Source: an uncultured Thiothrix sp. (lineage in GTDB: Bacteria > Pseudomonadota > Gammaproteobacteria > Thiotrichales > Thiotrichaceae). From it: a stretch of 64,000 nucleotides of DNA. The translations under genes and the position numbers were made by a program. The notes beneath the pieces were generated by a model that saw only the letters and a list, made by a program, of their open reading frames with translations, was not told the origin of the DNA and did no database searches. The stretch lies in NCBI RefSeq assembly GCF_937876535.1, contig NZ_CALFHZ010000014.1, positions 1,343 to 65,342 of the forward strand, read 5' to 3'. Shown piece by piece: positions 3,930 through 47,815 of this stretch (its first letter is position 1; each line of letters opens with the position of its first letter).

Positions 3930-4990
3930 TGGCTAGCAGTTCCTTGTTGGCGTTTTTTGTCATTCGCTAAATATTGGTTCACTGCTTTACGGTGCGCTTC
4001 ATAAGTTTCAGAAAAGAAATGCCGCCCATCACCCGTACCAGTCGCCACAAAATATAAATAATTAGTCTTAGCCGGATGCATCACGGCATCAATAGCCGCT
4101 TTACTAGGGGTCGCTATTGGTGTGGGGGGTAAACCAGTACGGGTGTAAGTATTCCAAGGGGTATCGGTTTCTAGATCTTTTTTACGAATATTGCCATCAT
4201 ACGCATCGCCCATCCCATAGATAACCGCTGGATCAGTTTGTAGCAACATATTTCTTTCTAAACGCGTCAAGAACACACGCGCAATCATAGGACGCTCATC
4301 AGGCATGCCTGTTTCTTTTTCAACTAAGGATGCCAAAATGAGCGCTTGGTAAGGGGTTTTAATCAAAGGATGTGGTTCACGTTGCTCCCAGGCTTTCATT
4401 AAGTAGTCATACATGACTTGATAACTACGCTTAAGCACGTCTACATCCGTCGACCCACGTGGAAAATTGTAAGTATCTGGATAAAACCAACCCTCAGCGG
4501 ATTCACCACTAGCGCCCCCAAGCTTGGGCATTAAATTCTTATAGTCTTCAGCACTCAGTGTTTGTTTGATATTAGGATGAGTTTGTACTGCTTTAACTAA
4601 CTCTTTGAATGTATGCCCTTCAATAATGCCTAATTGATATTGCAAAGTTTTACCTGAAGCTAAACGTGCCAGAAGATCTCCAGTAGTCATGTTGGGCTCT
4701 AAGGCATATTCCCCTGCTTTTAACTTGGATGCTTGTTCAGTAAACCGTGCTTGCGCTAAAAATAAGTACTCCGCAGGAATTACACTGGTTTTAGGCAAAA
4801 TCTCCGCAGCAAGCAATTGCTGGGCGACTTGACGAATATTCGTACCCGCTTTGACCTCAAAGCTTGTAGGCTGATTACTAGGAAGCTGGATAGGCTGTTG
4901 AATAAATGCTTGGTACTGCTGATAAGCAAGGCCAGCTACTATTCCCACCAGAACGACTAAGAATAGAACGAGCTTTAAAAGAAACCGCAT
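3926..4990 (-). CDS. mltG: Endolytic murein transglycosylase MltG (YceG family)
   Basis: An N-terminal TM helix is followed by a YceG-like domain (IIEGHTF, ASLVEKET, LQTDPAVIYG). I prefer the start at 4990 (MRFLLK) over the ORF-track start at 5032, but this is uncertain. Confidence 0.85.
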   Translation of the reverse strand: MRFLLKLVLFLVVLVGIVAGLAYQQYQAFIQQPIQLPSNQPTSFEVKAGTNIRQVAQQLLAAEILPKTSVIPAEYLFLAQARFTEQASKLKAGEYALEPNMTTGDLLARLASGKTLQYQLGIIEGHTFKELVKAVQTHPNIKQTLSAEDYKNLMPKLGGASGESAEGWFYPDTYNFPRGSTDVDVLKRSYQVMYDYLMKAWEQREPHPLIKTPYQALILASLVEKETGMPDERPMIARVFLTRLERNMLLQTDPAVIYGMGDAYDGNIRKKDLETDTPWNTYTRTGLPPTPIATPSKAAIDAVMHPAKTNYLYFVATGTGDGRHFFSETYEAHRKAVNQYLANDKKRQQGTASQ

Positions 4991-5125
4991 GAACAACTCT
5001 CGAAAGGATTGGGCAGAATTAACATAGAACAAAGCCTATGAATTGCCAAGAAAAAGCTTATGAATATTAGTTATTTTAATGCAGAGAAGTAAGCTAAACT
5101 CAGCTTACTTCTTAATTCAAAGCGT

Positions 5126-6370
5126 TTAAATCTTCTTAAAGATCAAGGTGCCGTTAGTACCACCAAAGCCAAAAGAGTTGCTCATAGCTATATTAACAAC
5201 TGTTTCACGCGCAACATTAGGCACGTAATCGAGATCACATTCTGGATCTTGTTGCTGTAAGTTGATGGTTGGAGGGAGTACTTGCTCATAAAGAGCCATA
5301 GCACTAAATACAGCCTCAATGCCACCGGCCGCCCCCAATAGATGACCAGTCATGGATTTAGTAGAGCTGACTGCTGTTTTATACGCATGATCGCCTAACG
5401 CTAGTTTAACCGCGAAGGTCTCAGCCTTATCACCCGCCGGTGTAGAAGTTCCATGTGCGTTGATATAGTCGATTTGATCAGGATTTAAACCAGCATCACG
5501 CATGGCATTGCGCATACAACGTGCAGCACCCTCACCACCTTCGGAAGGCGAAGTCATGTGATAAGCATCACTGCTCATACCATAACCGACTAATTCACAA
5601 TAAATTCTCGCACCACGGGCTTTGGCATGTTCATATTCTTCTAAGACTAAGACACCCGCACCATCACCTAGTACGAAACCATCACGATCAACATCCCAAG
5701 GACGACTTGCAGCTTCAGGATCATCATTACGAGTGGATAAAGCACGTGCAGCAGCAAAGCCGCCAATACCTAAAGGCGTAGAACCCATTTCAGCACCGCC
5801 AGCCACCATGACATCTGCATCACCGTATACAATCATCCGGGCTGCGTCACCAATACTATGGGTCGCGGTTGCGCAAGCAGAAACAATCGACATATTGGGT
5901 CCTTTTAAGCCATACATGATCGAGAGATTGCCAGCTACCATATTAATAATACTAGCGGGAACAAAGAACGGAGAGATTTTCCGCGCGCCCCCATTTAGAA
6001 AAGCGTTATAGTTGCGCTCAATCGTTTGCAAACCACCAATTCCAGAGCCCATCAAGACACCAATGCGCTCAGCATTCGCTTCTGTGACTTCTAGCCCTGA
6101 GTCACGAATTGCATCGACGCCAGCACCAATGCCATAGTGGATAAAGGTATCCATCTTCTTTTGGTCTTTAGGTTTAATATAATCATCAACATTAAAACCT
6201 TTGACATTCCCTGCAATTCGCACACTAAACTCGCTAGCATCGAATAGTTCAGGACTGATGGTATTGATACCGCTTTTACCCGCCTTAATATTGCCCCATG
6301 CACTTTCTAGGGTAGAACCTACAGGAGAGACAATACCTAGACCAGTTACTACTACACGCCTTTTAGACAA
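5126..6370 (-). CDS. fabF: Beta-ketoacyl-ACP synthase II
   Basis: Full-length KAS II with active-site ACATATH, HGTSTP and GHLLGAAG. Confidence 0.95.
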
Positions 6371-40135: not shown

Positions 40136-40510
40136 ATGAAATTCTGGACCGGTGTCATCACTGATAAAGTGCAAGAATCAAAAAGTTTTTATGTAGACTT
40201 ATTTGGCTGTGAAATCTTATATGAAGACGAGGGGGGCTGGTTTGTACTCTTGGGTTTAGCTGAGAGTGAGTTAGGTTTTATGCAACCAGAACTGACTACT
40301 CAAGCCCCGATTTTTCGTGCCGCCTTTCAGGGGCAAGGCATGTGGATTGCCATTGATGTAGTAGATGCAGAGGCTGAATATGCCCGCCTAACAGCATTAG
40401 GTGCGCCGATTGAAGTGGCATTGCGCGAAGAGCCTTGGGGCGATCGTCATTTTGTCCTACGCGACCCGAATGGGATTGGGGTTGATGTAGTGCAGCGGGT
40501 TGCTGCTTAA
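40136..40510 (+). CDS. VOC (glyoxalase/bleomycin-resistance) family protein
   Basis: 124 aa with a single paired beta-alpha-beta-beta-beta module pattern and PWGDRHFVLRDPNG. Confidence 0.75.
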   Translation: MKFWTGVITDKVQESKSFYVDLFGCEILYEDEGGWFVLLGLAESELGFMQPELTTQAPIFRAAFQGQGMWIAIDVVDAEAEYARLTALGAPIEVALREEPWGDRHFVLRDPNGIGVDVVQRVAA

Positions 40511-42222
40511 AGACAATAAACTAATAAACCGATAATGAGGAGCAACTCCAACCCCGCTAACCATTTCCAAAACTTCAAAGGATTACGTTCTAGTAGCGGG
40601 CGTTGGCGTTGATTAGCCAGTAAGCCCTCATTCGGGCGGGTTAAATCGGCAATAAACTCGGACAACACCTCATAACGCTTATCGGGATTCGGCTGAGTGG
40701 CTTTTTCCAAGGCCGCATCCACCCATTCCGGCACTTTGGGGTTATGCCAAGCGGCAGGCGTGTAATTAAATTTATGCTTGCTGGCCTTTTCCGGTTCAAT
40801 TTCGCCAAAGGGCAATTGTTCGGTCAGCATTTCGTAGGCAATCACGCCCAAGGAAAAAATATCCGAGCGATTGGTACCGCGTGCGCCCTGAAAATATTCA
40901 GGTGCGGAATAACTCGCCGTGCCGACAATATGGTTATGCTGCAACACGGTTTGCACCTCCATTAAACCCGCTATGCATGTCGAACCAAAGTCGATGATTT
41001 TTAAAGTATTATGCTGATCAATCAACACATTATCCGGCTTTAAATCCTGATGAATCATCTCCAAGCGATGCATAGCCCGCAAACCCCGCGCCATCTGATC
41101 CACCGTCGCCCGCACCTGTGCAATGCTGGGGTCGGGATGATCGAGCATCCATTGGCGTAAGGTCTGCCCTGCCACATATTCAACCACACTATACAAGCAA
41201 GTACGTGCCCGAGCATCGCGGGTTTGCAGCTTAATCAAATGCGGCGAATTAAGGCGTTGTGCTACCCATTCTTCATGCAAAAACAGGTCAATATAAGCCA
41301 GATCATCATTAAAATTTTGCGAAGGGGTTTTCAGTACTACTTGCTGATTTTGGTTGAACGTGTCTTCGGCTAAATAAACTTGGCTGCGAGACGTGGCGTT
41401 CAATTCGCGTAGAATTTTATAGCCATCTAGCACCTGCCCCGCTTTTAAATCGGGCGGAAACGGTAATTGGCTGAGCTGCTGATAAAACAACTCACGATTC
41501 ACCTCCGGTAAGGAGTCAATGCGCACAATTTGGCAGGTAATATTATCTTGGCTATTGGCTTCTAGTGCGGCTTGGACAATCTGCTCGGCGCAAGTTTGTA
41601 GATCAGGATAAGCAGTTAATTGTTGTGCTAAAGCGCTATCACTCAATACATCATGCACCCCATCGGTGGTGAGCACGAACACATCGCCTTGGCTCAATTC
41701 GAGGGTGCGAAAATCAATTTCTAAATGCGGCTCAATCCCCAAGGCGCGGGCTAAATAACTTTGTTGATTTTTAAATGGAATACGGTGATCGGTGGTCAGA
41801 CACTCCAGAGCGCCCTTTTGCCAGCGGTAAATGCGACTATCACCAATATGCAACACATAAGCGCTGTGGGATTTTAAAATCAAGGCGCTAAAGGTGGTGG
41901 CGAGGCTGCCTGTTTCGCCGTATTGGCGTTGACCTTGGCTATAGAGCCAGAGATTTAACGCACTTAAAACTTTTTGTGCGGCGTGTTTCACCGTCCACGA
42001 ATCGGGCGTGCTGGCGTAATCCTCTAGAAATTGCCGAACCGCGACTTCGCTGGCTTGTTTGCCGCCTGTACTGGCGCTCACGCCATCAGCAATAGCAAGA
42101 GCCATACCCTTGCTATCTAAACTTACACCCGACGGTAGCCAAGCACTGTAAAAATCCTCATTGACCGATTTCACACCTGCGATTGAGGCTTGTCCGAGAC
42201 TGACCGTGAGGGTGGCTTTCAA
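40507..42222 (-). CDS. Bifunctional PP2C phosphatase / Ser-Thr protein kinase with a C-terminal TM anchor
   Basis: PP2C motifs are NEDF, IADGVS, TTDGVHD and SQDNITC. Kinase motifs are VVLKTP, HQDLKPDNVLI and IIDFGS. The hydrophobic tail is LLLIIGLLVYCL. The TTG start lies 1 nt after the narK stop. Confidence 0.85.
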   Translation of the reverse strand: MKATLTVSLGQASIAGVKSVNEDFYSAWLPSGVSLDSKGMALAIADGVSASTGGKQASEVAVRQFLEDYASTPDSWTVKHAAQKVLSALNLWLYSQGQRQYGETGSLATTFSALILKSHSAYVLHIGDSRIYRWQKGALECLTTDHRIPFKNQQSYLARALGIEPHLEIDFRTLELSQGDVFVLTTDGVHDVLSDSALAQQLTAYPDLQTCAEQIVQAALEANSQDNITCQIVRIDSLPEVNRELFYQQLSQLPFPPDLKAGQVLDGYKILRELNATSRSQVYLAEDTFNQNQQVVLKTPSQNFNDDLAYIDLFLHEEWVAQRLNSPHLIKLQTRDARARTCLYSVVEYVAGQTLRQWMLDHPDPSIAQVRATVDQMARGLRAMHRLEMIHQDLKPDNVLIDQHNTLKIIDFGSTCIAGLMEVQTVLQHNHIVGTASYSAPEYFQGARGTNRSDIFSLGVIAYEMLTEQLPFGEIEPEKASKHKFNYTPAAWHNPKVPEWVDAALEKATQPNPDKRYEVLSEFIADLTRPNEGLLANQRQRPLLERNPLKFWKWLAGLELLLIIGLLVYCL

Positions 42223-43989: not shown

Positions 43990-45078
43990 ATGACTCATGC
44001 CAATCTTCGCCCACCACTTTGGACGCTCATTGCGCCCGCCCTAACCTTGTGCTTATTAGCCCTACAATTCACGGGCTTTGAATTCAACGGTTGGTATAGT
44101 GCAGCCCTTGCGATTGGTTTAATGGCGAGTGTGTTAGCGGCGGTGCATCATGCTGAAGTCATAGCCTATGGGATTGGTGAACCCTTTGGGACTTTAGTCT
44201 TAGCACTTGCGGTCACAGTGATTGAGGTGTCCTTGATTGTGTCGATTATGATGAGTGCGGAGTCGGGGGCAACCGTATTAGCGCGTGACACGGTCTTTGC
44301 CACCGTCATGATCATTTTAAATTTAATCGTGGGTTTGAGCTTTTTAATTGGCGGAATTCGCTTTGGAGAACAGCGCTTTATTTTAACCGGCAGCTACACC
44401 GCCCTCACCACCCTAGCCGCGATTATAGTCTTGACTTTAATCCTACCTAATTACACCACCAGCATGTCGGGGCCGCGTTACACCGATAGCCAATTGGTAT
44501 TTGTCGCGATTGTGTCCTTGGTGTTGTACATCCTATTCGTGTTTGTGCAAGCGGTGCGCCATCGCGATTACTTCCTCAATACCCAAATGCGCGAAGAAGC
44601 CGAACAGCAAGCCGCAGTACCCATTAAACTACTGATCATCAGTGGTTTATTTTTATTATTAAGTTTGGTCAGCGTGGTGTTAGCAGCCAAACTACTCTCG
44701 CCCGAAGTGAAAACCTTTGTGCACGCGATTGGTGCACCGGAAGTATTAGTTGGGGTCATTATCGCTACGATTGTGCTATTGCCCGAAGGTGTTGCCGCGC
44801 TACGTGCTGCTGCCAATAATCAACTCCAAACCAGTCTCAACCTCGCCTTTGGTTCTGCCCTCGCTACGATTGGTTTAACCATTCCGGTAGTAGCCATAGT
44901 TGCGATTGCAATGGATATGACTTTGGTCTTGGGCTTAGATAGTAAATCAATTGTGCTCTTGGTGTTATCGCTATTTGTGACCTCGCTTTCGATGAGTACC
45001 GGGCGCGTGACCGTGATGCAGGGGGCGGTGCATTTGGTGATTTTCGCGACTTATTTGTTTATGACGATTGTGCCTTAG
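43990..45078 (+). CDS. chaA: Ca2+/H+ antiporter (ChaA/CAX family)
   Basis: About 11 TM, with two alpha-repeat regions (GEPFGTLVLALAVTVIEV and LLPEGVAALRAA). I prefer the ATG at 43990 over the TTG at 43954. Confidence 0.8.
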   Translation: MTHANLRPPLWTLIAPALTLCLLALQFTGFEFNGWYSAALAIGLMASVLAAVHHAEVIAYGIGEPFGTLVLALAVTVIEVSLIVSIMMSAESGATVLARDTVFATVMIILNLIVGLSFLIGGIRFGEQRFILTGSYTALTTLAAIIVLTLILPNYTTSMSGPRYTDSQLVFVAIVSLVLYILFVFVQAVRHRDYFLNTQMREEAEQQAAVPIKLLIISGLFLLLSLVSVVLAAKLLSPEVKTFVHAIGAPEVLVGVIIATIVLLPEGVAALRAAANNQLQTSLNLAFGSALATIGLTIPVVAIVAIAMDMTLVLGLDSKSIVLLVLSLFVTSLSMSTGRVTVMQGAVHLVIFATYLFMTIVP

Positions 45079-45093
45079 GCTAAGGAGCAGGCA

Positions 45094-45423
45094 ATGAAAA
45101 AGGTAACTATTGAAGAAGCAGAAAATGATTTGGTCAATCTAATTGATGTTGTTGAGAGAGGTGAAGATGTTCATTTAACTAAAAATGGCGAATCTGTAGC
45201 TGTGTTGATTGCTGAGGAACGCTATCAAGAGCTACTTGACGGCAATAAACAGATCTTTAATGCGATTATGCGGTGGCGTGCTCAACATCAATATATCGAA
45301 GTAAGTGATGAAGAAATTGCAAGTTGGCGCACTGGTTCAATTAATCATCAAACACAGAATATTGTTGAGTTACTTGCTATGGAACAGGATATTGAATTTG
45401 AGCCACCAAAATTTTTAAATTAA
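45094..45423 (+). CDS. Phd/YefM-like antitoxin-fold protein with an extended C-terminus
   Basis: The N-terminus MKKVTIEEAENDLVNLIDVVERGEDVHLTKNGESVAVLI follows the Phd/YefM pattern. A strong RBS AAGGAG is present. No canonical toxin ORF follows. Confidence 0.55.
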   Translation: MKKVTIEEAENDLVNLIDVVERGEDVHLTKNGESVAVLIAEERYQELLDGNKQIFNAIMRWRAQHQYIEVSDEEIASWRTGSINHQTQNIVELLAMEQDIEFEPPKFLN

Positions 45424-45514
45424 TTTTTTGAAATAACTATCTTGCTATTTGAAACCTCAGATCAATTACAGTTTCATTTTTAGTTTTTACCTCTGGAAGC
45501 AAGAGATATCGTTT

Positions 45515-45523
45515 TGGTATAAT
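45515..45523 (+). promoter_or_regulatory. Candidate extended -10 promoter (TGgTATAAT) for the OLD-family gene
   Basis: TGGTATAAT lies 31 nt upstream of the ATG at 45554. There is no good -35. Confidence 0.35.
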
Positions 45524-45553
45524 TTTTATCAAACCCCAAAGGATAAAAGTATC

Positions 45554-47647
45554 ATGACTACTAAGCTCTTGCGTTTTAAAGTAGAAAATTTTCGCTCGGT
45601 AGAGAACTCGTGTTGGATAGAAATATCTGATGTTAATTGCTTGGTAGGAACAAACGAGTCTGGTAAAACAAATTTACTATTGGCTCTTTGGAAAATGAAG
45701 CCTGCTAATAAAGAGCTAATCACCCCCTTAGAGGATTATCCGAGAAAAAAATATGCTGACTACAAAGATACCTTAGGAGATGAGATTTTTATAACATGTG
45801 AGTTTGAGTTATCACACTCCACAACACATAAACTAGAAAAGCTAACAGGCTGGAATCAGAGCTTTTTTAAAAAGATGCTTTTAGCGAGATCTTATAAAGG
45901 CAGCTATAGCTATAACTATTTAAGCGATTCAGCTCCATCCTTTTCAAAGGAAAAACTAATTTCTTTATTAGATAGCATTGATGAAAAGGAATCTGAGGAA
46001 GAAGATAGTTTGACATCTGTTAGAGCTACTCTAGCCAGTTACCATGATTATCTGAATGAAAAAGACTTAAGCGCAATATATAATAATTTAAAGGAAAAAT
46101 TCGATGAAGGTGAAATAAGTAAAATAATCAATCCTCTATTAAAAACAATTGATAAAAAATATATAAGTCTAGACAAAGAAACTTTTTTTGCATTATACCA
46201 AGCTCTCCCAACTTTTGTTTACTACTCTGACTACGGAAATTTAGATTCCGAGATATACTTACCCCATGTCATAAAAAACTTTGAACGTACTGATTTAGGA
46301 GAAAAAGAGCGGTCAAAAGCTCGAAGCTTAAAAGTACTCTTTGAATTTGTTAATTTATCCCCAGAAGAAATTCTGGAGTTAGGCAAAGAAGCGTTACCTA
46401 TTAGAGTTATTACGAATACTGTTTACCATCATAATCAAACTCAAAAAACCTCAGAGACGCTGGAGGAACCACAAGAAGATGATATCGAAACTGTAAAAGC
46501 TAATAAAAAAGAGCGTGAGGTACTTTTACAATCAGCATCCACAAAGCTAACTAGCAAATTTAAAGAGTGGTGGAAACAGGGAAATTATCGCTTTAGATTT
46601 CAAGCTGATGGTAATCACTTTAGAATCTGGGTTAGTGATGAAATCCGTACTGAAGAAGTAGAGTTAGAAGGAAGAAGTCGTGGTTTACAATGGTTTTTTA
46701 GCTTCTTTCTTGTATTTTTAGTAGAAAGCAAAGATAGTCATGAAAATTGCATTTTACTCTTAGATGAACCAGGAATATCTTTACATCCTATTGCACAAAG
46801 CGATTTATTAACATTTTTCCAATCATTATCCGAGAGTAACCAACTTATTTATACTACCCACTCACCATTTCTAGTTGATTCGGATAATCTAGGCGATGTT
46901 CATGCAGTGTACGTCAGTAAAGAGGGTAAAACACTAGTCTCATCTGATCTCAGGGCTAACAAAGCCATTGCTGAAAAGTCTATCTATCCAATTCATGCGG
47001 CAATTGGACTAACTGTTTCTGAAACTATGTTAATAGGTTGTCAGCCAGTTTTAGTAGAAGGTCCTTCAGATCAAATTTACTTTTCTCTAATTAAACTTTA
47101 TATGATCAAAAACGGTTTTTATAAAAATAGTAAGGAGCTGGTTTTTATTCCAACTGGTGGAATTAGAGGTATGTCGCCTATCATTAGTATTTTAAGTGGG
47201 CGCGAAAATGACCTACCTTTTGTTATATTAGATTCCGATAAGTCAGGAAAAGACAAGTATAACAATCTAAAAGGTGATTTGTATGCGGACTCTCAGAAAA
47301 AGCTCATTGCAGTTGACAAATACTTAAATGCAGGTAATTGGGAAATTGAGGATTTAATGCCCACTGCTGAGTTAGCACGACTATTTTCTAGAACATATCG
47401 TATGAAAGAAACAGAAGATGAGTTTGAGGATATTTTTGACTCTAAGCTTCCTATACTTCCCCAAATGGAAAAATATGCTCAAGACAATCAATATGCTCTA
47501 GCTCAAGGCTGGAAAGTTGAATTAGCAAAAGATCTTCGTAGTAGCTTTAAAAAGCTTTCTGATAAAGGAATTGATGACAATATAGTAAAAATTTGGCGAG
47601 CAATATTTGATCAGCTCACCGGCAATCAACCAAGCAATCTAACCTAA
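45554..47647 (+). CDS. OLD-family nuclease: ABC-type ATPase fused to a C-terminal TOPRIM domain
   Basis: The Walker A is GTNESGKTN, the signature-like segment is RSRGLQWFFSFFLVF, the Walker B is ILLLDEPGISLHP and the H-loop is YTTHSPF. The TOPRIM domain has VLVEGPSDQ and ILDSDKSG. I chose the ATG at 45554 (AAAGGA RBS); the upstream TTG extension looks non-coding. Confidence 0.85.
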   Translation: MTTKLLRFKVENFRSVENSCWIEISDVNCLVGTNESGKTNLLLALWKMKPANKELITPLEDYPRKKYADYKDTLGDEIFITCEFELSHSTTHKLEKLTGWNQSFFKKMLLARSYKGSYSYNYLSDSAPSFSKEKLISLLDSIDEKESEEEDSLTSVRATLASYHDYLNEKDLSAIYNNLKEKFDEGEISKIINPLLKTIDKKYISLDKETFFALYQALPTFVYYSDYGNLDSEIYLPHVIKNFERTDLGEKERSKARSLKVLFEFVNLSPEEILELGKEALPIRVITNTVYHHNQTQKTSETLEEPQEDDIETVKANKKEREVLLQSASTKLTSKFKEWWKQGNYRFRFQADGNHFRIWVSDEIRTEEVELEGRSRGLQWFFSFFLVFLVESKDSHENCILLLDEPGISLHPIAQSDLLTFFQSLSESNQLIYTTHSPFLVDSDNLGDVHAVYVSKEGKTLVSSDLRANKAIAEKSIYPIHAAIGLTVSETMLIGCQPVLVEGPSDQIYFSLIKLYMIKNGFYKNSKELVFIPTGGIRGMSPIISILSGRENDLPFVILDSDKSGKDKYNNLKGDLYADSQKKLIAVDKYLNAGNWEIEDLMPTAELARLFSRTYRMKETEDEFEDIFDSKLPILPQMEKYAQDNQYALAQGWKVELAKDLRSSFKKLSDKGIDDNIVKIWRAIFDQLTGNQPSNLT

Positions 47648-47654
47648 ATAGAAC

Positions 47655-47670
47655 TGGCACAACCCTTGCA
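47655..47670 (+). promoter_or_regulatory. Sigma54 promoter for nirBD-nasA
   Basis: TGGCACAACCCTTGCA is a near-perfect match to TGGCAC-N5-TTGCA. It begins 8 nt after the OLD gene stop. Confidence 0.75.
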
Positions 47671-47722
47671 TCATCTCTCCTAAACCAGCTGCCCAAGTCA
47701 ACGGCGACTCTCGCAGCATCTT

Positions 47723-47815
47723 CACGCACTGAAGCGTGATTTCAACCACATTCGGGTAATGAAGCCCTGAACCTCTCTGTCCTTGGATAGCAGCGGTTCA
47801 GGGCTTTTTTGTTTT
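47723..47815 (+). promoter_or_regulatory. nirB leader: dual ANTAR hexaloop hairpins plus an intrinsic terminator
   Basis: Hairpin 1 is CACGC-ACTGAA-GCGTG (47723-47738). Hairpin 2 is GGGT-AATGAA-GCCC (within 47751-47770). Both loops have A1 and G4. The 3' arm of hairpin 2 is also the 5' arm of the terminator GCCCTGAACC...GGTTCAGGGC followed by TTTTTTGTTTT (47764-47815). Confidence 0.8.

Follow-up and report, generated by a model that had tools for sequence, protein, structure and literature searches.

The locus described here lies within a window of 64,000 nucleotides (the whole stretch of DNA that was analysed) and consists of two AT-rich genes, one for a small antitoxin-like protein and one for an OLD-family nuclease, placed between a cation exchanger gene and the promoter of nirB. 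Its features are as follows.

43990 to 45078, plus strand: chaA-type cation/proton exchanger gene, 362 aa (Pfam Na_Ca_ex, E 6e-26), a core gene and the left flank of the candidate hotspot.

45079 to 45093, plus strand: left junction, AAGGAGCA, the conserved post-chaA ribosome-binding sequence, fused directly to the small gene (homology to the related locus L003 runs to 45090).

45094 to 45423, plus strand: the small gene, an apparently orphan Phd/YefM (VapB-like) antitoxin derivative, 109 aa (Pfam and NCBIfam matches above cut-off).

45424 to 45553, plus strand: AT-rich spacer, 130 nt, GC 0.285, with an extended -10-like TGgTATAAT, TTGGTATAAT, at 45514-45523 and an AAGGA upstream of the OLD start.

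45554 to 47647, plus strand: gene for a standalone OLD-family ABC-ATPase/TOPRIM nuclease, 697 aa, catalytic motifs intact (AAA_15, E 7.6e-31).

47648 to 47654, plus strand: right junction of the block (homology to L003 is back at 47653, 2 nt before TGGCAC).

47655 to 47670, plus strand: sigma54-type -24/-12 element TGGCACaacccTTGCA (TGGCAC-N5-TTGCA, by reading of the sequence) of the nirBD-nasA operon, the core right flank.

47672 to 47815, plus strand: nirB leader with a terminator hairpin at 47761-47806 and a T-run (fold -53.2 kcal/mol, z = -5.4; a terminator-like site in the scan).

Lying after chaA and before the nirB sigma54 promoter, the segment 45091-47652 is a block of foreign DNA; its GC content is about 34%, that of the flanks about 49%. 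GC content stays at 0.30-0.36 over 45200-47600 and at 0.47-0.52 in chaA and nirB, the values by gene being 0.485 for chaA, 0.355 for the small gene, 0.285 for the spacer, 0.343 for the OLD gene and 0.507 for nirB. DNA homology between the window and the same locus in the relative L003 stops at 45090 and restarts at 47653, and the block is therefore an indel with those exact boundaries; in L003 the post-chaA sequence AAGGAGCA precedes a different first gene, orf56. A search for insertion scars at the block ends recovered only short direct or inverted repeats at chance level, no integrase, att repeats or phage context was found in the window, and no Rfam family matched anywhere in it, the nirB leader included. 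The block contains two ORFs only, the small gene and the OLD gene, both on the plus strand. Between 45079 and 47654 there is no helicase, reverse transcriptase, DUF4435 or toxin ORF, and tblastn with one related VapC detected no PIN protein in the window. On the right, the OLD stop codon (47645-47647) lies 7 nt from the T and 8 nt from the GG of TGGCAC-N5-TTGCA, and TGGCACaacccTTGCA is matched exactly, in the same place, in the related loci L002-L005. These results agree with an earlier note on this DNA, which had described an AT-rich block between chaA and the nirB promoter, a stop codon 8 nt from the -24 element, a 130-nt spacer with its own TGgTATAAT, and the absence both of GajB-, reverse transcriptase- or AriB-type partners and of a classical Phd-partner toxin.

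The large protein matches AAA_15 (E 7.6e-31) and AAA_21 (E 6.1e-14) above the Pfam cut-offs, but its match to OLD-like_TOPRIM over residues 499-562 is sub-threshold (16.5 bits vs a 23.2-bit cut-off). The PADLOC Old model aligns to residues 392-571 (E 1.5e-26), the PADLOC GajA and AriA profiles give partial matches, and the NCBIfam model of the retron Eco8 effector reaches 35 bits vs a 250-bit cut-off. The top PDB match by sequence is 6p74, the OLD protein of Thermus scotoductus, with the TOPRIM region aligned, and a Foldseek search with the predicted structure likewise ranks 6p74 first (E 3.6e-11), followed by the GajA structures 8u7i and 8sm3, indicating a fold like that of solved OLD proteins. 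The model has a moderate pLDDT of 73, and its global TM is only 0.25-0.38 owing to domain placement. Across 17 homologues the ATPase motifs are invariant, namely G32/G37-K38-T39 (Walker A), S375-x-G377-L-Q379 (signature), D404-E405 (Walker B) and H436 (H-loop), as are the TOPRIM residues E502 (VEGPSD) and D560-x-D562 (D560-S-D562). The identification of a 697-aa OLD-type ATPase-TOPRIM protein in the earlier note is thus borne out by AAA_15, AAA_21, PADLOC Old and 6p74; of the domain searches that it had proposed for this protein, those for the ATPase rise above cut-off and that for the TOPRIM domain falls below it.

Database searches returned 4,483 homologues of the OLD protein, the closest 57% identical and the majority of the close ones from Bacteroidota. 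The downstream neighbours of these homologues are mixed (type I restriction HsdR, integrases, IS elements, a SMODS protein and others), with a UvrD domain in 0 of 40 and no reverse transcriptase either, and homologues on plasmids occur as single genes with the annotation 'AAA family ATPase'. In the window, the gene after OLD is nirB. With no adjacent UvrD/PcrA-like helicase, no retron reverse transcriptase or ncRNA, and its ATPase and TOPRIM parts unsplit, the window gene appears by its context to be a standalone, Class 1 OLD. By definition a Class 1 OLD is a system of one gene, and phage defence has been shown for a V. cholerae member (PMC10568477, PMC12392090). The subfamily of OLDs of about 700 aa, with thousands of homologues that include plasmid and phage copies, is a candidate standalone defence gene. 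Upstream of the gene, the TGgTATAAT of the spacer was missed by the sigma70 consensus scan because it has no -35 hexamer; the scan called a single weak two-hexamer site at 45526-45555. No inverted repeat or palindrome was found in the 130-nt spacer.

In the small protein, residues 1-49 match Pfam PhdYeFM_antitox (E 2.9e-9, 37 bits vs a 29.8-bit cut-off), and the NCBIfam model TIGR01552 phd_fam gives 26.9 vs a cut-off of 20.8. The AF2 model has a pLDDT of 82-89 for residues 1-40, and its best Foldseek match is the Phd N-domain 4zlx (TM 0.89, rmsd 1.6 A). An N-terminal Phd DNA-binding/dimerisation fold is thus followed by a novel C-terminal tail (TQNIVELLAM..DIEF.PPK), which is of low confidence in the AF2 model and probably disordered. 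Residues 1-82 are 55% identical to a Thiothrix Phd from a Phd-PIN pair, and the protein is 51-56% identical to 90-92-aa antitoxins that overlap a PIN toxin gene. All of its closest 90-96-aa relatives overlap such a gene, by 10-13 nt, and end in RDFSWD(E), in place of which the small-protein family has its own tail of about 30 residues. Over codons 1-80 the small gene is 76% identical in nucleotides to the lineage's phd; positions 4984-5241 of the related locus L088 and the canonical phd of L102 share 75.9% nucleotide identity, with 17 nt upstream included. The small gene is a paralogue of the lineage's phd from a Phd-VapC pair in which the toxin-binding end has been replaced. Of the features of a type II antitoxin it has the N-terminal Phd/YefM fold; no cognate toxin lies adjacent to it or overlaps it, and the toxin-binding end of its relatives is not conserved. 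An origin of the tail from a frame-shifted remnant of the 5' end of vapC was rejected, as tail DNA matches three vapC genes no better than shuffles do (z <= 1.84).

Members of the small-protein family are very few and occur at no site other than chaA-nirB in Thiothrix-like genomes, in a very thin sample of six sequences with three resolved neighbourhoods. No further copies were found in a plasmid collection or among viral contigs, a metagenome scan returned one locus, and a search of 1.84 billion representatives added one further full-length family member only; the remaining matches in that search lack the family tail and end within about four positions of profile position 82.

Comparison with relatives reveals that the cargo at this site turns over. 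The variable region is flanked by chaA in L002-L006, L088 and L102; ChaA is 86-88% identical between the window and both L003 and L088, and for NirB the single comparison made, of the window with L003, gives 94.5% identity. We speak of a Thiothrix-like lineage because synteny is shared with a Thiothrix sp. MAG contig and nucleotide identity to that contig is 79-85%. L003 carries orf56, the small gene, a co-directional TIR-TM gene (PADLOC E 3.9e-61) after a 95-nt spacer, and vapB/vapC debris. L088 carries a PDC-S01 ATPase gene (minus strand), the small gene, convergent gajB and gajA on the minus strand (PADLOC E ~1e-230 and ~1e-252, respectively), and vapB followed by a PIN/VapC-like frame that runs off the locus end (33% identity, E 5e-7). 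L102, a Thiothrix sp. MAG, has PDC-S01 and Gabija without the small gene, and homology to the short contigs L103 and L104 stops exactly where the small gene ends. Three cargo types are thus found between chaA and nirB in four genomes.

Two observations on the small gene itself should be noted. In two of its three resolved contexts a co-directional effector encoded by one gene follows it directly, after a spacer of 130 nt in the window and 95 nt in L003, which speaks against the explanation preferred below, since a modular two-gene system would look alike. It is also as AT-rich here (0.355) as the cargo and may have been exchanged together with OLD.

The earlier note had proposed that the small protein restrains the nuclease, or senses for it, as a toxin-antitoxin-like or abortive-infection pair in which the long tail would hold the nuclease inactive until infection. 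The two genes are adjacent, co-directional and equally AT-rich, the folded N-domain and probably disordered tail give the small protein an antitoxin-like layout, and no cognate toxin is nearby. However, a Phd-type ORF neighbours OLD at 0 of 80 loci by tblastn (the best 80 of 242 OLD-relative loci, species representatives from other species), and none was recovered at the same best 80 of 242 loci with the family HMM run against all six-frame segments, positive controls included, or by a Pfam scan of their 37 upstream same-strand ORFs. The small gene adjoins OLD in the window genome only, among four resolved neighbourhoods (window, L003, L088 and L102); in relatives it is a syntenic resident beside TIR-TM or convergent Gabija, there with a tail about 65% identical, and not beside OLD. 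The TIR-TM homologues of other genomes have no Phd neighbour. Furthermore, a 130-nt spacer with its own promoter-like element separates the two genes, whereas in true Phd-toxin pairs the genes overlap or abut (overlaps of 10-13 nt in the relatives of the small gene); Class 1 OLDs work as single genes (PMC12392090); and the nearest relatives of the small protein are antitoxins of PIN/VapC toxins, a partner type that exists and is absent here. Hence, of what the proposal needed, the Phd/YefM homology suggested for the N-terminus stands (Pfam, TIGR01552, Foldseek 4zlx) but co-occurrence with OLD elsewhere does not, and we consider a dedicated pair very unlikely. The statement that no system combining an antitoxin-fold protein with an OLD nuclease has been described still holds, our literature search having found none.

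The small gene could also be a functionless remnant of a decayed Phd-VapC module, as would fit the missing cognate toxin, the lack of the gene in L102, and the truncated vapC and phd-type pseudogene with an in-frame stop among the debris of the L003 hotspot. Its reading frame is nevertheless intact in six of six known copies and its tail motif is invariant. Estimates of dN/dS are 0.13-0.20 in both the N-domain and the tail halves (about 0.15-0.2 for the tail), although every comparison with the window copy has synonymous sites at or near saturation, and dS is well measured (~0.9) only for L003 vs L088/L007. These values indicate that the gene is under purifying selection, and mere debris seems very improbable. 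By a hand count on the alignment, OLD-linked and TIR-linked copies are about 65% identical in the tail and about 50% in the N-domain, and conservation across unrelated cargo is highest in the tail. If true, this is a clean case of an antitoxin gene that was duplicated, lost its toxin-binding end and persists under selection without a toxin, and it bears on the evolution of orphan antitoxins.

Selection on the small gene, together with the DNA-binding fold of its N-domain, is also consistent with a portable repressor or 'safety catch' at the 5' edge of the cassette that controls expression of the downstream effector without binding it. Variable DNA starts exactly at the stop codon of the small gene in five contexts, and four relatives (L003, L088, L103 and L104) have a conserved palindrome of about 45 bp 5' of the gene. 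The same palindrome is, however, present in L102, which lacks the small gene, and a search found it absent from the window. The downstream cargo of L088 is convergent and so could not be controlled from a shared promoter region, and such a role leaves the conserved tail unexplained. A shared operator was sought and rejected, as the spacers upstream of OLD and of TIR-TM (L003) have no word of >=9 nt and no motif in common and contain no inverted repeat. This role is unlikely. A broader version, in which the 109-aa protein is an effector-agnostic control module whose tail senses a common signal and whose Phd domain gates the expression or activity of the swapped effector, is in our estimation quite unlikely. 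Just as doubtful are its particulars, in which the signal would be, for example, a phage protein or host protease and effectors such as OLD and TIR-TM would be recombined behind the stop codon. If true, an antitoxin fold would have taken on a new use, as a universal 'safety catch' for immune genes that are swapped.

We therefore favor the explanation that the chaA-nirB interval is a defence hotspot in which the OLD nuclease is standalone and its neighbour, an orphan Phd derivative resident there, is not its partner, and we regard this as probable. Cargo would be exchanged between genomes at this site of the Thiothrix-like lineage, the window cargo being one horizontally acquired gene for a Class 1-type OLD nuclease. 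By analogy with P2 Old, TsOLD and V. cholerae OLD, the protein would act alone as an ATP-regulated TOPRIM nuclease that, during phage infection, nicks or cuts nucleic acid and thereby blocks phage propagation; the target may be DNA, or tRNA as with P2 Old. Transcription of the gene probably starts at an extended -10 promoter of its own within the 130-nt spacer, and the terminator in the nirB leader would block read-through from the OLD gene and insulate nirB. The 109-aa gene would reside at the left edge of the hotspot and would not be a dedicated OLD partner. Having arisen from the lineage's own phd, it would have retained the dimeric DNA-binding Phd domain, with a new tail of about 30 residues in place of the VapC-binding end of about 10, and it is maintained by selection. 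Most likely, its product works solo, as a DNA-binding or regulatory protein of the Phd type, and its tail binds a partner other than the neighbouring cargo gene. If this explanation is true, the locus adds one more case of turnover at a core-flanked defence hotspot and of a single-gene OLD, and foreign DNA would be tolerable a few bases 5' of a sigma54 promoter if the operon behind it is shielded by a terminator in its leader.

Among known systems, the window OLD is most similar to the Class 1 OLDs (P2 Old, TsOLD 6P74, Vc OLD and E. coli YbjD), being likewise encoded alone, with no helicase, reverse transcriptase or split AriB partner beside it. TsOLD is its best PDB match by both sequence and fold, although the two are only 14% identical (Foldseek), and the ATPase domain of the window OLD carries a helical insertion (residues ~100-330) that makes the protein about 110-170 residues longer than P2 Old and TsOLD. 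Vc OLD adjoins DarTG (PMC12392090), and the window OLD likewise lies at a site of defence genes. Gabija GajA and PARIS AriA have ATPase-TOPRIM chemistry in common with the window OLD, and GajA structures are among its top Foldseek matches. However, GajA profiles give it 40-53 bits vs 836 bits for the true GajA of L088, a GajB/UvrD-like gene is absent beside it and beside its homologues, which sets it apart from Gabija, and the ATPase and TOPRIM parts that are split in PARIS are fused here.

The small protein shares with Phd-VapC antitoxins the Phd fold and a middle segment (FNAI..WR....LSDEEI.SWR). In contrast to those antitoxins, which end in RDFSWD(E) and overlap their toxin, it has a unique tail of about 30 residues and no adjacent toxin, the next gene being 95-130 nt away or convergent.

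The P2 old/tin locus is cited in PMC10568477 as a defence hotspot. Like other core-flanked defence hotspots, the chaA-nirB site combines constant flanks with unrelated systems (OLD, TIR-TM, Gabija + PDC-S01) and toxin-antitoxin modules or their debris. It differs from them in that it abuts the sigma54 promoter of a nitrogen-assimilation operon and in that a Phd-derived small gene marks the left edge of its variable DNA.

The AT-rich block between chaA and the nirB promoter has a GC content of 0.30-0.36 across about 45200-47600, against 0.47-0.52 in the flanks (by gene: chaA 0.485, the small Phd/YefM-like gene 0.355, the spacer behind it 0.285, the OLD-family gene 0.343, nirB 0.507). Its composition and its two open reading frames are as described in the earlier note, and so are its ends: the contig of L003, a related chaA-nirB locus, is collinear with the window through chaA to 45090 and again from 47653 on, which makes the block an indel whose boundaries are exactly those proposed.

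45094-45423, forward strand: small gene, 109 aa
45554-47647, forward strand: OLD gene, 697 aa
47645-47647, forward strand: stop codon of the OLD gene
47655-47670: sigma54 -24/-12 element of the nirB promoter, a perfect TGGCAC-N5-TTGCA

A longer OLD frame from a TTG start at 45449 was rejected as unsupported; homologues start at ATG.

The identification of the large gene as an OLD-family ATPase-TOPRIM gene was corroborated by every membership test that was run. The protein matches AAA_15 and AAA_21 (Pfam), the PADLOC Old profile (E 1.5e-26) and, weakly, an OLD-like TOPRIM model; its top PDB match in both sequence and fold is Thermus scotoductus OLD (TsOLD, 6p74), with GajA next by fold (AlphaFold2 model of moderate quality, pLDDT 73). 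Because the ATPase and TOPRIM motifs (Walker A, ABC signature, Walker B, H-loop His, TOPRIM E502, DxD D560/D562) show no variation across 17 aligned homologues, the protein looks, from its sequence, like a catalytically competent OLD-family ATPase-nuclease. It lacks the architectures of Gabija, retron and PARIS systems, and its context agrees with the published definition of Class 1 (single-gene) OLDs, which goes by gene context (PMC7049728, PMC10568477); by that definition it is a Class 1 OLD. A bacterial Class 1 OLD alone defends V. cholerae (PMC12392090), and tRNA cleavage by P2 Old was recently reported (PMC12445682). By analogy with P2 Old, TsOLD and Vc OLD, the protein would act by ATP-regulated TOPRIM cleavage of DNA or tRNA. 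Its ~700-aa subfamily has an invariant block, FVYYSDYGNLDSEIYLPH, at residues 221-238. Plasmids carry homologues too, as do one phage record (MT835758.1, 48% identity) and two PHROG families of unknown function.

With E below 1e-5 as the limit, the OLD protein has 4,483 homologues. Outside the source genome the nearest has only 57% identity, and the close ones are mainly from Bacteroidota, which fits horizontal acquisition of AT-rich DNA. The earlier note had proposed that the two genes might form an undescribed pair, and our literature search likewise turned up no paper describing a Phd-OLD system. The pairing did not recur elsewhere: a one-genome-per-species scan gave 242 OLD relatives, and in the 4-kb flanks of the best 80 of these the small protein had no tblastn match, its family HMM found none at E <=1 among 10,161 six-frame segments (all positive controls were recovered), and a Pfam scan detected no PhdYeFM domain in 37 candidate upstream same-strand ORFs. 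Genes beside these 80 homologues vary between loci; among the 40 largest downstream neighbours are type I restriction R subunits, integrases, IS elements and an SMODS protein, with no UvrD-type helicase or reverse transcriptase, and plasmid homologues are solitary genes labelled 'AAA family ATPase'.

All members of the small-protein family with resolved context lie at the chaA-nirB site of related genomes, next to differing neighbours. The lineage is judged to be Thiothrix-like from its synteny with a named Thiothrix MAG contig, to which nucleotide identity is 79-85%. Gene orders at these loci are as follows.

L002-L006: chaA, orf56, small gene, 267-aa TIR protein (PADLOC TIR-TM, E 3.9e-61), vapB/mazE debris
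L088, left part: chaA, AAA_14-DUF4143 ATPase (PADLOC PDC-S01, opposite strand), small gene
L088, right part: complete Gabija (GajB + GajA) convergent to the small gene, then vapB (mazE) and a PIN/VapC-like frame

At the same site in relatives the small gene adjoins TIR-TM or a convergent Gabija in place of OLD. TIR-TM homologues elsewhere (E. coli prophage, Acidithiobacillus plasmid) have no Phd neighbour, and L102, a Thiothrix sp. MAG contig, carries PDC-S01 and Gabija as in L088 with the small gene absent (69 bp vs 467 bp in L088). On two very short metagenome contigs that carry further members of the family, L103 (562 bp) and L104 (581 bp), homology to L003/L088 ends exactly at the small gene's 3' end and the sequence beyond matches no known context; at least two more downstream contexts, or cargo variants, therefore exist behind it. 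Judged from these loci, the stretch between chaA and nirB is a hotspot for defence genes. We argue from the comparative data that a Phd-OLD system does not exist at the window locus, and a true pair carries low weight.

Several other features mark the site. The PIN/VapC-like frame of L088 runs past the locus end and is 33% identical to the PIN of L102 (E 5e-7). In L003, a degenerate repeat at 5536-5624, between the TIR-TM gene and mazE and about 900 bp upstream of the true nirB start, covers a piece of the nirB leader along with the ribosome-binding site and about the first ten nirB codons; recombination in the nirB-proximal flank during an exchange of cargo probably left it behind. Remains of toxin-antitoxin genes lie on the right of the hotspot (L003 5734-6325), where an intact mazE/vapB-type antitoxin gene is accompanied by the truncated start of a vapC and by another Phd-type frame broken by an in-frame stop. 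Directly 3' of chaA, L003 4031-4201 encodes a 56-aa ORF (MNTKTPAQLEREQLKQALL...) without family match, preceded by the same ribosome-binding sequence as the window's small gene; its 3' end is also on L103. A palindrome of about 45 bp, TTATACAATT(T)C ... GAAT.GTATAA, is conserved upstream of the small gene or beside the divergent AAA_14-DUF4143 gene start, including in L102, which has no small gene, but does not occur in the window. It may serve as an operator or as a site of recombination.

L003 4203-4246: palindrome
L088 4870-4907: palindrome
L102 15377-15410: palindrome
L103 and L104, upstream regions: palindrome

The Phd/YefM N-terminus recognised earlier was recovered by PhdYeFM_antitox (Pfam, residues 1-49, 37 bits against a cut-off of 29.8) and TIGR01552. 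AlphaFold2 is confident for residues 1-40 (pLDDT 82-89), with the P1 Phd N-terminal DNA-binding domain as top structural match (4zlx, TM 0.89, rmsd 1.6 A), and of low confidence for 50-109, as is usual for antitoxin tails. A word-indexed search of 5.8 billion proteins gave three relatives and exhaustive HMMER against 1.84 billion representatives one more full-length member, the remaining matches lacking the family-specific tail and stopping within ~4 positions of profile position 82; the family comprises six sequences, three with fully resolved neighbourhoods. Closest to it are Phd antitoxins of 90-96 aa (51-56% identity over residues 1-80), each encoded in the classical way by a gene that overlaps one for a PIN (VapC) toxin; one of them lies 2.4 kb upstream of chaA in the Thiothrix MAG (L102). 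Since the L088 small gene has 75.9% nucleotide identity to this phd, over a stretch that begins 17 nt before the start codon and reaches codon 80, the small gene is, on nucleotide comparison, a paralogue of the phd that the lineage itself carries. The RDFSWD(E) ending of the canonical antitoxins is replaced in this family by a new tail of ~30 residues (..TQNIVELLAM..DIEF.PPK); no derivation from vapC was detectable.

That the small gene is functionless debris carries little weight: N-domain and tail halves are both under purifying selection (dN/dS 0.13-0.20). Between L003 and L088 its dS is 0.91 vs 0.71 for chaA (~1.3-fold, unsaturated), and between the window and L003 2.1 vs 1.17, near saturation; this modest excess and a branching order like that of chaA are compatible with a presence at the site that predates the divergence of these genomes. 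What still speaks for a functional link to the cargo is chiefly position: a co-directional single-gene effector lies within 95-130 nt in two of the three resolved contexts, and variable DNA begins at the small gene's stop codon in every case. Between OLD-linked and TIR-linked copies the tail is better conserved (~65% identity) than the N-domain (~50%; both by hand count from the alignment), which is not expected of a segment that has to neutralise two unrelated effector folds. A third rival, a portable regulator of whatever cargo is adjacent, is likewise given low weight. We favour reading the small protein as a Phd-type dimer that acts alone, in DNA binding or regulation, and whose tail has a partner other than the neighbouring effector.

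Across 47655-47815 the sigma54 element is followed by a nirB leader of ~140 nt, in which a strong terminator hairpin (47761-47806, z = -5.4) is accompanied by two small ones. Relatives share this layout, which matches no Rfam family and looks like NasR/NasT-type antitermination control. Because conserved DNA starts only 2 nt upstream of TGGCAC, the nirB enhancer does not occupy a conserved position just upstream of the promoter. OLD transcription would probably start from the extended -10-like TGgTATAAT at 45514-45523, which a two-hexamer promoter scan did not call, and the leader hairpin would block read-through into nirB. Two further genes adjoin the nitrate-assimilation genes, the fusion directly downstream of the transporter gene, and may form a regulatory pair for nitrate uptake.

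40507-42222, reverse strand: PP2C-phosphatase/Ser-Thr-kinase fusion, 571 aa
42224-43705, reverse strand: MFS nitrate/nitrite-type transporter

On our reading the OLD gene is the present cargo in this genome, horizontally acquired and self-sufficient, and the small gene an orphan Phd derivative marking the left edge of variable DNA. The find belongs to known kinds, a Class 1 OLD within a core-gene-flanked defence hotspot, with the evolution of an orphan antitoxin as a mildly interesting side story. TsOLD is itself a Class 1 OLD, from which the ~700-aa subfamily differs by helices inserted into the ATPase domain (roughly residues 100-330). The small protein shares the Phd fold with type II antitoxins but departs from them in two defining features, having neither an adjacent toxin gene nor the conserved toxin-binding end.
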